Source of the DNA: Candidatus Bathyarchaeia archaeon
GTDB taxonomy: Archaea; Thermoproteota; CALKCG01; B24
Assembly (NCBI GenBank): GCA_038870975.1
Contig: JAVZJD010000002.1
Location: 672,001 to 736,000, forward strand
Length of the DNA stretch: 64,000 nucleotides
Direction of reading: 5' to 3'
Shown: positions 4,976 to 34,897 of the stretch, piece after piece
How the letters are laid out: each line of letters begins with the position of its first letter
Numbering within the stretch: the first letter of the stretch is position 1
The notes under the pieces: model-generated
What the model was told of the DNA's origin: nothing
Seen by the model: the letters and a program-made list of their open reading frames with translations, nothing else
Database searches by the model: none
Translations under genes and position numbers: made by a program

Positions 4976-5097
4976 CCCGGGGTAGCTCAGCCTGGTAGAG
5001 CTTCCGGCTGTAGACCTCGCCGTGATTGGCGTGGGTCACTCAGCTTACCAGGCGGACAGAAACCGGAGTGTCGTCGGTTCAAATCCGGCCCCCGGGA
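4976..5097 (+). tRNA. tRNA-Tyr(GTA) with a 48-nt intron at 37/38 (5014-5061)
   Basis: Acceptor CCCGGGG/CCCCGGG with C1:G72, anticodon GTA 5010-5012, T-arm GTCGGTTCAAATCCGGC; BHB helix CTGT/ACAG with bulges AGA and AAA; CCA not encoded. Confidence 0.95.
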
Positions 5098-5213
5098 CTT
5101 ACATTCTTCCCCTAAGAAGAATATCCTCTACTTCTTTTCCAATCCATTATATGGATTTATAACAGCTAAAGTCTTATAGTAGCCTTGAAGTTAGAATTAG
5201 ATCGGTGTAAACC

Positions 5214-31637: not shown

Positions 31638-31709
31638 ATCTCAAACCTAAAATATATCTTGAAAAATAGCCATATATATGTTAACCTGGTATTAGGTAGA
31701 GGAGCTGCT

Positions 31710-32537
31710 TTGATTTTCAACGCAACCTTAGTCAATGAAGCCCTGAGAAGAATTGAACGTATTGTAGACCTAAACGACTCTTTTAACGCGGAGGTTGAAA
31801 GGGAAGTTGAGCGTATGGAAGTCCCAACCGTTTTAAAAAAAGAGTTTTCCAAGGCTTTAAGGGGGCTTCTAGACCCTGTTAAAACTCCTAGGAGGGGTTT
31901 TTTCATCGTTGTAACAGGTATCGATAAATCAGGCAAAGAAACTCAGTGTTTTAACCCCAGGAGAACCCCAGGCGTCAAATCGTTGATGGACTTCTTACTC
32001 GAGCTTAAAGGTGAAGTATTTCCCATCTCTCTACCAAGCTATAGAACCCTCTTAGGATCGTTGGTTGGCTCATATCTAGGTGTTAAAGATGTTAACGTCA
32101 AACTTAGTGGAGAGATTTCAGAGGAGCACGCGTGGATTCTATGGAGTCTAGACCGAGCCCAATACAATAATGATGTCAAAAGTTGGCTAAACCAGAGAAA
32201 CCACTACGTACTCGCGAGAAGGTGGACTGAAAGTAATGTATGCTATCAGACAGTTAGAGGTATATCAGAAGATAGAATTCTAAGGTTTGAGAGGAATATT
32301 GAAAAGCCTGACCTGATCTTGGTTATCGATATCACCGCCGAGGAGGCCTTAACGAGGTCTAGAGAAAGGGATAGATATGAAAAACTGGATTTTCTGGAGA
32401 AGGTTAGAGAGAAACTTCTTGAAATATCTTTCAGAGGACTCATCGGCCGAACGGTGGTCGTTAACGGCTTTGGCTCTCCATCTGAGGTCAACAGTAGGTT
32501 GCTTAAAATCCTCAACTTCTACTTGAGAAGAAGCTAA
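31710..32537 (+). CDS. Thymidylate kinase-like protein with N-terminal extension
   Basis: TGIDKSGKETQ P-loop, SLDRAQ, ARRWTESN, PDLILVIDI; TTG start after GAGGAG. Confidence 0.72.
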   Translation: MIFNATLVNEALRRIERIVDLNDSFNAEVEREVERMEVPTVLKKEFSKALRGLLDPVKTPRRGFFIVVTGIDKSGKETQCFNPRRTPGVKSLMDFLLELKGEVFPISLPSYRTLLGSLVGSYLGVKDVNVKLSGEISEEHAWILWSLDRAQYNNDVKSWLNQRNHYVLARRWTESNVCYQTVRGISEDRILRFERNIEKPDLILVIDITAEEALTRSRERDRYEKLDFLEKVREKLLEISFRGLIGRTVVVNGFGSPSEVNSRLLKILNFYLRRS

Positions 32538-32581: not shown

Positions 32582-32857
32582 TTGAAAGCTCCAAAAGTCA
32601 TTAACACCTACTGCCCTAAGTGTAATGCTAAGACACCACATACTGTGTCGATATACCGTAAGGGGAAGGAAAATTCTTTACGCCGCGGAGCTAGACACCA
32701 TGAATGGGAGCTTCATGGATATGGTGGTCAGAAATTCCCAGAGCAGAGGAGGAAGGCAAAGACGACTACAAAGCAACTTCTAAAGTTGAAATGTAGACAG
32801 TGTGGATATACCCTGGATAGGCTTGGGGTTAGACTTAGAAAGCTTGAACTTGCGTAA
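32582..32857 (+). CDS. rpl44e: 50S ribosomal protein L44e
   Basis: TYCPKC...GYGGQ...KAKTT...LKCRQCG. Confidence 0.96.
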   Translation: MKAPKVINTYCPKCNAKTPHTVSIYRKGKENSLRRGARHHEWELHGYGGQKFPEQRRKAKTTTKQLLKLKCRQCGYTLDRLGVRLRKLELA

Positions 32858-32928
32858 AATCCCTATAGTTTGAGGAAAATTCTTTTTAGCGTCTTCAACG
32901 CTTATATTTAATTCGGTGAGAGAGTTTT

Positions 32929-33181
32929 ATGCCTCAGGCGTTTGTACTTATAAATTCCGAAATAGGTGCGGAGGAGGAGGTTTTAAACGCTCTTAAAAAT
33001 ATGGAGAATGTCAAGGAGGCATACATAGTCTATGGAGTCTACGACATAATCGCCCGGGTGGAAAGGGTTATTGCAACCCCCACATGCTGACACTATGGAG
33101 AAGCTTAGAGAGATAGTGACTGTAAGAATACGTAGGATAAATAAGGTTAGAAGCACTTTAACCATGATAGTTGCTAAGTAG
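32929..33181 (+). CDS. Stand-alone Lrp/AsnC ligand-binding domain protein (76 aa after removing intron 33064-33085)
   Basis: Exon 1 MPQAFVLINSEIGAEEEV...VYGVYDIIARVE; exon 2 ADTMEKLREIVTVRIRRINKVRSTLTMIVAK*; missed by the ORF track because the unspliced frame stops at 33088-33090. Confidence 0.9.
33064..33085 (+). other. Putative 22-nt bulge-helix-bulge mRNA intron
   Basis: Helix GTGG/CCAC, bulges AA^A and AT^G, inner stem GGGTT/AACCC, outer CGG/CTG; removal restores frame. Confidence 0.85.
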
Positions 33182-33238
33182 ATTTCAATTCCCCACTTTC
33201 ATTTTTAGACGTCGAACGACGTAAATACTTATATCACC

Positions 33239-34897
33239 ATGCTTGAGAATACTTATCTCGTGGAAAGAGTATACGTAGTTCCAGAACCTAAGAGGCTGGA
33301 GTTTACAGGTAAATGGTTTAAATTCGACGGTTTCGAAAACTTCCCGAAATTCATAGGTGAAGAGTTTAAAGTACCTGTGGGCGGGTGGAGAATAGTCAAA
33401 GTCGACCGTGATGGGACTGGTGTTAAAGTCAAAGAGGGGTTTGTCGAAGTTTGGGGTGACGAAAAAGTATTCTATGCTACGCTCATACAGCTTATACTGC
33501 AGGGTGATGGACATATTCCAGAGGTTACTATTGAAGAGGGTTTCTTCTTTAAATTTAGAGGATTCCATTTAGACATAGCTAGAGGAGGAGTCCCAAAAGT
33601 TGAGACATTTAAGTCGATCATTAGATGGCTCTACCTGCTCAAATACAACTACTTTGCAGTTTACGTTGAAGACCTATTCCCGTGGAAGAGCTATCCCCAG
33701 ATCGGTATATTGAGGGGTAGGCTAACGGAAGGAGAGTGGAATACCATAGTAGACTACGGTGAAAAGCTCGGTATTGAAGTCTTCCCATCTCTAGAGTTGT
33801 GCGGACACATGGAGCATATACTTTCAATACCTGAGTTTAGACGGTTCAGCGAGTGGCATAGACCTATGGAGGGTTGTTTAGATGTAAGTAATGAGGAGGC
33901 GAGAGAATTTGCATACAGACTTTTAAATGAGGCTTTAGAACTTACACGGTCAAAGTATGTGCATATAGGTGGAGATGAGACTTGGGCACTTGGAAGAGGA
34001 GTGAGTCTGAATAAGACGTGGAAGTTTGAAGGCCCAAGTCTCTACGAGAGACACCATAAGAGACTTGTTGAGATAGCTAGAAGCCATGAGAAAATCCCGC
34101 TGCTGTGGGGAGATATGATATCTGGAATGTATTTAGCTGGGGATAGGGAGAAGTGGGCTGAAGTGCTTCAAAGCGACATATGGAGAGATAGTATAATTGC
34201 CAACTGGGATTACAGCCCAGAGTCTATAGACCACTTTAGGAGGAAGATAGATATTTTTAAGAGTAGAGGGCTTGAACAAGTGGCTTGCCCAGGGCTTTCA
34301 AACTGGGACAGATTCTACCCAAATATCGAAGTAGCTATTGCAAACCTTAGAAACTTCCTTATAGCTGCTAGAGAGAAGGGCATCCTAGGCTTCATGGTGA
34401 CGGCTTGGGGAGACGATGGAGAAGAATGTCTATTTTCATTTCTGAATCCACTGATACTCGCATCCATGGAGATCGCTGAGGGCATTGGAGAATGGGAGGA
34501 GAAGTGGATGGCGCTAACTGGAGAATCTAAAGACGTGTTGAAAGCGAGGCTCTTATTCGGACGTGGAGAAGTCTCGGATATTCTCAAACATGCGTTATAT
34601 TCTACGCCTCTTCTGAGGAGGATTGGACGTGAAAGGCTAGAGCAGATTGTTAAAAACTGGGGAGGACTTCTAGAAGATTTGAAAGACGTTGCTCTACCTA
34701 AAGACCTCGAATTCATAAGGAGGAGTATTGAGGTTGGCTTAAATAAGCTCAGAGGGAAAGCGACAGTTTCAGACTACATTGCATTAGCCCGTTTATACTC
34801 TGAACTGTGGCTTTCAGAGAGAAAGCCAGAAGGATTAGAATTGATCGTTACAAGGCTTTGGGGGGCTGCTGGAAGAACTGACTTAAACCTGCAGTGA
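33239..34897 (+). CDS. GH20 beta-N-acetylhexosaminidase
   Basis: FRGFHLDIARG, HIGGDE, LLWGDM, TAWGDDG. Confidence 0.9.
   Translation: MLENTYLVERVYVVPEPKRLEFTGKWFKFDGFENFPKFIGEEFKVPVGGWRIVKVDRDGTGVKVKEGFVEVWGDEKVFYATLIQLILQGDGHIPEVTIEEGFFFKFRGFHLDIARGGVPKVETFKSIIRWLYLLKYNYFAVYVEDLFPWKSYPQIGILRGRLTEGEWNTIVDYGEKLGIEVFPSLELCGHMEHILSIPEFRRFSEWHRPMEGCLDVSNEEAREFAYRLLNEALELTRSKYVHIGGDETWALGRGVSLNKTWKFEGPSLYERHHKRLVEIARSHEKIPLLWGDMISGMYLAGDREKWAEVLQSDIWRDSIIANWDYSPESIDHFRRKIDIFKSRGLEQVACPGLSNWDRFYPNIEVAIANLRNFLIAAREKGILGFMVTAWGDDGEECLFSFLNPLILASMEIAEGIGEWEEKWMALTGESKDVLKARLLFGRGEVSDILKHALYSTPLLRRIGRERLEQIVKNWGGLLEDLKDVALPKDLEFIRRSIEVGLNKLRGKATVSDYIALARLYSELWLSERKPEGLELIVTRLWGAAGRTDLNLQ

Follow-up and report, generated by a model that had tools for sequence, protein, structure and literature searches.

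The gene at positions 32929–33181 of the analysed window (a stretch of 64,000 nucleotides, positions 672,001 to 736,000 of contig JAVZJD010000002.1 from a Candidatus Bathyarchaeia archaeon) raises the question of how a single protein domain is encoded when its two halves lie in different reading frames. The frame that opens at ATG 32929 reads MPQAF...YDIIARVE, continues into a short insert and stops at TGA 33088–33090, and according to the sequence, the list of open reading frames (ORFs) and the translation it encodes 53 amino acids (aa). The translation of the +1 frame carries on with ADTMEKLREIV...TLTMIVAK and ends at TAG 33179–33181. Pfam matches both pieces to PF01037, the Lrp/AsnC ligand-binding domain (RAM domain), with the first piece covering profile positions 2–40 and the second covering positions 43–71 of 73, so that together they make up successive, colinear halves of a single domain. 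Deletion of the 22 nucleotides (nt) at 33064–33085 yields a 76-aa protein, and an uninterrupted paralogue within the same genome (C2:334672–334893, 63% identical) is colinear with this product across VE^AD, where the caret marks the junction here and below. A previous sequence-only reading had described the domain split over the ATG 32929 frame and the +1 frame, a canonical bulge-helix-bulge (BHB) fold of the 22 nt, and a clean 76-aa protein formed by joining GTG GAA to GCT GAC when these bases are removed. All of these details, including the helices, bulges, inner stem and outer pairs, are found in the sequence, and the Pfam halves and the paralogue agree with them. The 22 nt are very probably a pre-mRNA intron of the BHB type, situated between codons 45 and 46, which would be cut by the splicing endonuclease EndA and joined by the RNA ligase RtcB, and whose removal is required for the 76-aa protein.

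The locus or part of it is present in sixteen public runs from ten studies, mostly hot-spring metagenomes, and four of these runs were compared over 32582–33400. The DNA runs X2, X6 and X10 belong to three independent studies and each contains the whole stretch in a single contig of 11–21 kb. The 22 nt are retained in these contigs, which otherwise differ by just two substitutions. The fourth run, X15, is a metatranscriptomic RNA-Seq library with a 239-nt contig (depth about 10) that covers 32875–33135 with 0 mismatches. Exactly 22 nt are left out of this contig at 33064 (33064–33085), with no other difference, and the resulting junction, GTGGAA^GCTGAC, is the one predicted by the cutting rule for BHB motifs and the one that the sequence-only reading had expected in metatranscriptome data. 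The 100% identity of the contig extends over 54 nt of upstream spacer, and the flanking L44e and GH20-like genes have no cover in X15, from which no inference is drawn on transcript ends or an operon. Because of the full identity including the spacer and the lack of cover over the neighbouring genes, spliced mRNA is a far likelier source of the contig than an intron-less DNA copy. Record 7 of X15 is a 199-nt contig from another, more GC-rich species that lies over window positions 33028–33059 and has a contiguous VE-AD junction (...GGGT TAGAG GCAGACACCATGGACAAG). Spliced and intron-less sequences would look alike in this record, so it was not used.

The structure of the insert is a full hBHBh' motif, in which a 4-bp helix separates two 3-nt bulges, one on each strand and each located 3' to the strand of the helix that it follows. 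The central helix of 4 bp, the AAA bulge and the inner stem all appear in the minimum-free-energy fold. A geometry reference is available within the window in the form of a tRNA-Tyr (GTA) gene. Its canonical BHB intron, 48 nt long and located at 37/38, reads TCCGG-CTGT-AG^A...ACAG-AA^A-CCGGA and exhibits the same bulge handedness as the intron of the RAM gene. This tRNA gene was missed by ARAGORN without its intron mode and was found by Rfam and by ARAGORN -i. The archaeal splicing endonuclease is reported to cut after the second base of each bulge (PMC2738675), and this rule gives the correct anticodon loop for tRNA-Tyr and the junction GTGGAA^GCTGAC for the RAM gene. Shifting either cut in the RAM gene by one base changes the joined sequence, and the intron boundaries are therefore unambiguous. 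The BHB geometry and the cut rule are identical to those of archaeal tRNA introns at 37/38, and the spliced RAM junction also resembles an anticodon loop: a short stem closes a loop of 7 nt, and the exons meet between positions 6 and 7 of this loop. Unlike the tRNA introns, the host here is a messenger, and splicing restores a reading frame instead of a tRNA fold.

The proposed RNA would read, from 5' to 3', CGG (outer helix), GUGG (central helix), AAA (bulge 1), GGGUU (inner stem), AUUGC (loop), AACCC (inner stem), CCAC (central helix), AUG (bulge 2) and CUG (outer helix). The exonic GUGG would pair with the intronic CCAC to form a 4-bp helix. On either side of it would lie one 3-nt bulge per strand, followed by an intron hairpin of 5 bp on one side and by an exon-exon helix of 2–3 bp on the other. 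The splicing endonuclease, apparently composed of one catalytic and one non-catalytic EndA unit, would cut after the second base of each bulge, and an RtcB-type ligase would then join GUGGAA to GCUGAC and restore the frame. The assignment of these two enzymes is likewise a prediction, which for EndA follows from the geometry and the cut sites, and the spliced mRNA is presumed to be translated.

The insert is not confined to this genome, which is 1.85 Mb in two contigs. The class-level group to which it belongs in the genome collection contains 17 species in four families, and the relatives are titled at NCBI as hot-spring 'Candidatus Bathyarchaeia/Bathyarchaeota archaeon' metagenome-assembled genomes (MAGs). 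In fifteen of the 17 genomes (14 besides this one) the same two codons are separated by an insert, which measures 21 nt (n = 5), 22 nt (n = 4), 23 nt (n = 3), and 30, 31 and 32 nt (n = 1 each). These lengths fall in all three classes modulo 3, and therefore no single reading frame runs through the inserts. The sequence of the insert varies among the relatives while the pairing is kept. The central helix GTGG/CCAC becomes GTAG/CTAC, GTAG/CTGC or GTAG/CTAT, with a G-C to A-U change on both sides in four sequences, and the inner stem GGGTT/AACCC becomes GGGCT/AGCCC or GGGGTT/AACCCC. Changes on both sides are seen in three of the five inner-stem pairs. The long introns form hairpins of 9–10 bp, and the inner stem ranges from 4 to 10 bp across all 15 sequences. 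In the outer helix, GG/CY is paired in 15 of 15 sequences and the third pair is C-G in 10 of 15. Overall, 94.4% of the cells in the 15-sequence alignment form standard pairs, compared with 39–51% when the partners are slid by 1–3 columns. Four pairs change on both sides, and the covariation score of 0.316 compares with 0.148 in shuffled alignments (0 of 500 as high) and with 0.007–0.120 for the slid structures.

Table 1. Coordinates of the RAM-domain gene, its intron and the other features discussed. Positions without a prefix refer to the window; C1 and C2 are contigs of this genome (G000), and the last six features lie outside the window and are BHB-shaped inserts.
Feature	Position	Strand	Basis or remark
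Exon 1, codons 1–45 (MPQAF...YDIIARVE) of the stand-alone RAM-domain gene	32929..33063	+	ORF list, translation, Pfam, pN/pS
Outer (exon-exon) helix h, 5' strand CGG, pairs with 33087–33089	33055..33057	+	pair counts
Central 4-bp helix H, 5' strand GTGG, exon side	33058..33061	+	96.7% of cells paired
Bulge 1 AAA, cut after second base, between 33063 and 33064	33062..33064	+	5' cut fixed by RNA-contig junction
BHB intron of 22 nt, AGGGTTATTGCAACCCCCACAT, phase 0, between codons 45 and 46	33064..33085	+	sequence; RNA contig without these bases; relatives
Inner hairpin h', stem GGGTT (33065–69) / AACCC (33075–79), loop ATTGC (33070–74)	33065..33079	+	96% of cells paired
Central helix H, 3' strand CCAC, intron side	33080..33083	+	sequence, alignment
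Bulge 2 ATG, cut after second base, between 33085 and 33086	33084..33086	+	3' cut fixed by RNA-contig junction
Exon 2, codons 46–76 (ADTMEKLREIV...TLTMIVAK) and stop TAG 33179–33181	33086..33181	+	translation, Pfam, pN/pS
Outer helix h, 3' strand CTG	33087..33089	+	pair counts
tRNA-Tyr (GTA) gene with 48-nt canonical BHB intron at 37/38	4976–5098	+	Rfam tRNA match; ARAGORN i(37,48); in-window geometry reference
292-aa protein with thymidylate-kinase domain (PF02223), upstream of L44e	31659–32537	+	
Ribosomal protein L44e gene, directly upstream of the RAM gene	32582..32857	+	Pfam PF00935
552-aa GH20-family glycosidase-like protein, downstream of the RAM gene	33239–34897	+	
cbf5, 17-nt insert AACCTTTCCTTGGAGAT	L023:1797–1813 = G000 C2:281640–281656	-	restores GHGGTL-D-PP
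EF-2, 31-nt insert	C1:642258–642288	+	restores NIGIIAHVDHGKT
radical-SAM gene, 30-nt insert	C1:783508–783537	+	restores PIEKKPLYHF
mat (SAM synthetase), 33-nt insert	C1 about 18.96 kb	-	restores ERK^GLGHPD
endoQ, 19-nt insert	C1:609048–609066	+	restores AYGK^YHWSGHR
pcm, 29-nt insert	C2:34531–34559	-	restores QTISAP^HM

Both exons exhibit the signature of purifying selection on a protein. Among the 15 orthologues, exon 1 has a ratio of non-synonymous to synonymous change (pN/pS) of 0.14 and exon 2 one of 0.20, and synonymous sites are close to saturated across the class. When this genome is compared with a congener (G002), exon 2 contains nine synonymous and no non-synonymous differences. The other two frames of exon 2 contain 1–7 stops. 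Exon 2 is preceded by a stop or a frameshift and lacks a start codon, yet its pN/pS is low, and it is therefore maintained as coding sequence. Alignment to uninterrupted homologues gives the same picture, as all of the approximately 64 orthologues recovered from beyond the class, in other Bathyarchaeia, Nitrososphaeria and related MAGs, are uninterrupted and, like the paralogue, colinear exactly across VE-AD.

Without splicing, the RNA yields only a truncated product, of 53 aa here and of 48–54 aa in the relatives, mostly through an in-frame TAA in the intron loop. This TAA is present in the loop of 12 of the 15 introns, and translation of the unspliced RNA therefore ends at once. It also blocks read-through of the 21-nt and 30-nt inserts, whose lengths would keep the frame. 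The in-frame TAA may be a simple limit on faulty products. The loop in this genome reads ATTGC(A) in an intron of 22 nt, and in five congeners (L002–L006) it reads ATTT(A) or ATGT(A) in introns of 21 nt. The change to ATTGC(A) removed the in-frame TAA, and the unspliced frame stops here only at TGA 33088, inside exon 2.

Two relatives inside the class lack the intron precisely, and in both the RAM gene is syntenic. In genome G008 (L025, C12:27822–28043) not a base of the intron is left (cgtgttgaa^gctgac), and the gene clusters with its interrupted counterparts in G011, G012 and G014 (SH-aLRT 100). The tree of 94 RAM proteins has 76 columns, too few to show one clade of intron-bearing genes, and only the placement of G008 was used. 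The second case is an uncultured relative on a 42-kb JGI contig (L137:672–908), in which the intron is again precisely absent (cgggtagaa^gccgac) and the gene exhibits 90% nucleotide identity to the spliced form of G011. Two intron-less lineages inside an intron-bearing clade suggest repeated precise loss of the intron, the same pattern of gain and loss that has been described for cbf5.

The genome encodes the enzymes that such an intron would require. Two ORFs belong to the EndA family (186 and 185 aa) and are 31% identical to each other. The first has the catalytic triad Tyr/His/Lys and can be aligned to the catalytic repeat in fused enzymes, and the second is without the His and exhibits a weak match to beta-subunit models. 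The splicing endonuclease is thus predicted to be heteromeric, with one catalytic and one non-catalytic unit. Heteromeric EndA is reported to accept relaxed motifs and to accompany cbf5 splicing (PMC5829648, PMC2738675). RtcB is present in the genome as well. It occupies one open frame of 986 aa (G000 C1:62226–65000, minus strand; loci L135/L136), and its Pfam match is split into profile positions 1–50 and 49–426; the approximately 1.4 kb of in-frame extra sequence that splits the match is most simply an intein. Introns are predicted by ARAGORN -i in 13 of the 44 tRNA genes genome-wide. One of these 13, a 'tRNA-Stop(tta)' at C1 629995–630103, is implausible and probably has a mis-read intron position.

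Several observations weigh against a spliced BHB intron at this locus. BHB-like shapes beside open frames occur genome-wide at about the frequency of a mirror-geometry control (676 versus 620, 154 versus 135, and 32 versus 26 for the strict design). These structural scans recover the RAM gene, EF-2, the radical-SAM gene, endoQ and pcm, but since the hits barely exceed the control, the scans cannot count introns without homology evidence. As BHB-like shapes are not rare by themselves, the case for the intron rests on homology, conservation, covariation and RNA evidence and not on shape. The stability of the local fold does not exceed that of shuffled sequence (z = 0.07), as is to be expected of a motif of this size. 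With 2–3 bp, and 2 bp in one family, the outer helix is short, and in each of the two longest introns the 4-bp helix has a single mismatch. Related species also have DNA alleles from which the intron is precisely missing (G008 and the L137 lineage). The RNA support is one assembled contig from one run and not raw reads, and contigs give neither strand nor abundance nor the ratio of spliced to unspliced RNA.

Other explanations of the locus must account for the same evidence. Removal of the 22 nt from RNA at the same sites by an activity other than EndA and RtcB, whether another endonuclease and ligase pair or a self-catalysed reaction, draws on the fact that only the end product, one spliced contig, has been seen. 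To our knowledge, inserts of 21–32 nt are too small for a ribozyme of any known class, which argues against self-catalysis. In this co-varying BHB, both 3-nt bulges are cut behind their second base, as in the published EndA rule (PMC2738675), and the geometry equals that of the tRNA-Tyr intron of the window, so that such an activity is very unlikely. The gene might instead be read without splicing, either as two polypeptides that assemble (the 53-aa N-terminal product and a second one initiated at the Met in ADTMEK) or through bypassing or frameshifting by the ribosome, with the RNA contig derived from an intron-less strain. Intron-less alleles in related species and a Met codon three codons into exon 2 would be in keeping with this account. 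The Met is equally conserved in uninterrupted orthologues, however, and is thus not a dedicated start; the spread of insert lengths over all three classes modulo 3 fits no single frameshift rule, and the 3' ends of the inserts have no landing codon that matches the take-off codon GAA. Neither the two-peptide nor the recoding version explains the co-varying BHB helices. An intron-less strain of this species in sample X15 is an unlikely source of an RNA contig that is 100% identical to this genome over 239 nt, spacer included, and reading without splicing is accordingly given slightly less credence still than a different cutting activity.

A pseudogene broken by the 22-nt insertion and redundant with the paralogue would fit the frame as annotated, which is broken, and the presence of a 63% identical uninterrupted copy in the same genome. 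The break, however, occurs at one site across four families while exon 2 retains a pN/pS of 0.20 with saturated synonymous change and keeps stops in its other frames only; the structure of the insert co-varies, and a precisely joined RNA form exists, all of which makes loss of function highly improbable. An assembly or sequencing artefact has no observation in its favour, is refuted and has a negligible probability, as the same 22 nt occur in the long contigs of three studies' DNA assemblies, the truncated ORF of this very insert is called on 13 contigs from NCBI, JGI, ENA and Logan, and inserts occupy the same site in fourteen other genomes. The proposal of a functional, spliced gene made by the sequence-only reading is thus upheld by the conservation in 15 genomes, the covariation, the selection on both exons and the X15 junction, with the role of EndA deduced from the geometry. 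A further possibility builds on the spliced BHB intron and would make its removal a regulated expression switch. The frame-breaking intron with its conserved loop stop would keep an amino-acid-sensing regulator off, or as a half-domain, until the tRNA-splicing machinery acts, in a lineage with general and evolutionarily dynamic EndA/RtcB splicing of mRNA from at least seven genes including EF-2 and cbf5. Such a switch is considered unlikely; if it did exist, it would be an archaeal counterpart of the IRE1/RtcB splicing of XBP1 and HAC1.

The product of 32929–33181 is a stand-alone Lrp/AsnC ligand-binding (RAM) domain protein, as judged from its predicted sequence. The spliced product is only 76 aa long and contains a single PF01037 domain with no helix-turn-helix domain. 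Uninterrupted orthologues are annotated with PF01037 alone, and homologues are labelled 'Lrp/AsnC ligand binding domain-containing protein'. An uninterrupted orthologue (L019), used as query in place of the spliced protein, exhibits full-length matches to AsnC-type structures of 75–83 aa, namely 2zbc (E = 6e-24), 2e1a/2z4p and 2cvi (E about 1e-15 for 2e1a and 2cvi). These stand-alone RAM proteins, termed 'demi-FFRP', resemble the family of the spliced product in having a single PF01037 domain without a DNA-binding domain. Interruption has not been reported for their genes, unlike the RAM gene described here. Members of the stand-alone RAM-domain family bind amino acids and form oligomers, sometimes together with full-length Lrp regulators.

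Six other protein-coding genes of this genome contain BHB-shaped inserts, and in each of them a conserved motif is restored once the insert is taken out (Table 1). Five of the six inserts share the design of the RAM intron, N4-AA^A...N4'-AN^N, and the pcm insert has the same layout with ACA as the first bulge. The cbf5 insert splits the codon of the catalytic Asp after its first base (GHGGTL-G^AT-PPATGVLPIALNEATK), which is the classic cbf5 site, and forms a 4-bp helix CTCT/GGAG with bulges AGA and ATA and a 5-bp outer helix. The classic site has been reported only for Desulfurococcales and Sulfolobales (PMC2738675). Together with the RAM gene, these six interrupted genes suggest that in this group the enzymes of tRNA splicing double as a splicing system for mRNA.

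BHB introns in mRNA are already known as a kind; what is new is the RAM gene family, the lineage and the transcript-level support. Archaeal pre-mRNA splicing had been confirmed for no gene besides cbf5 as of 2009, though other introns were predicted (PMC2738675), and in 2020 cbf5 was described as the only BHB intron reported in archaeal mRNA apart from a 5' untranslated region (UTR) intron presented in the same paper (PMC7714728). The literature searched did not mention BHB introns for any Lrp/AsnC gene or for Bathyarchaeia. The cbf5 intron is reported in Watanabe 2002, Yoshinari 2006 and Yokobori 2009 (PMC2738675). The RAM gene is a second gene family, in a different lineage, with a spliced BHB intron in coding sequence and transcript-level support, and the 15 intron-bearing genes with their two precisely intron-less relatives form a comparative data set.

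The cbf5 pre-mRNA introns of Crenarchaeota are the closest in kind, being short (16–44 nt), located in coding sequence and bounded by BHB-type motifs that are cut after the second bulge base (PMC2738675). Both cbf5 and RAM introns are accompanied by heteromeric EndA in their hosts, a predicted one for the RAM gene, by patchy gain and precise loss, and by mis-annotation by gene callers. They differ in that the RAM intron interrupts a stand-alone Lrp/AsnC RAM gene in hot-spring MAGs labelled Bathyarchaeia, and not in Desulfurococcales or Sulfolobales, and forms the full hBHBh' with both bulges, whereas most cbf5 introns have relaxed motifs. The 5' UTR intron of HVO_1309 in Haloferax volcanii (PMC7714728) is likewise an mRNA substrate of the archaeal splicing endonuclease with a BHB motif, the enzyme being a prediction for the RAM gene. 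That intron is 46 nt long, lies in an untranslated leader and interrupts no frame; circRNA-seq and an in vitro assay stand behind it, whereas the RAM intron is known from sequence and one RNA contig.

A more distant likeness is found in the eukaryotic IRE1/RtcB splicing of XBP1 (26 nt) and HAC1, in which the removed segment is also very short, shifts the frame and interrupts the mRNA of a regulatory protein. In these cases a protein endonuclease cuts at stem-loop sites without a spliceosome, and an RtcB-type ligase acts in metazoa, which can be likened to the proposed splicing of the RAM gene. Neither IRE1 nor the motif it recognises is related to EndA or the BHB, and XBP1 splicing is a regulated stress switch.

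The annotation of the gene in public collections is affected accordingly. These contain only truncated exon-1 ORFs (48, 53 and 54 aa) on dozens of contigs, in agreement with the earlier claim that gene callers miss the gene. The exon-2 ORF and the spliced product are absent from the same collections; the look-up of the exact 76-aa sequence is uninformative, as the X15 contig does not span the whole gene. Automatic annotation enters genes of this type as pseudogenes or truncated proteins, and the metabolic and regulatory inventories of these uncultured archaea are thus systematically incomplete.

The surroundings of the RAM gene are conserved to different degrees. The order of the thymidylate-kinase-like gene, L44e and the RAM gene is kept across the class, with synteny in loci L001–L015 and in the intron-less G008 locus (L025). 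The GH20 neighbour is seen only in loci of the same genus.

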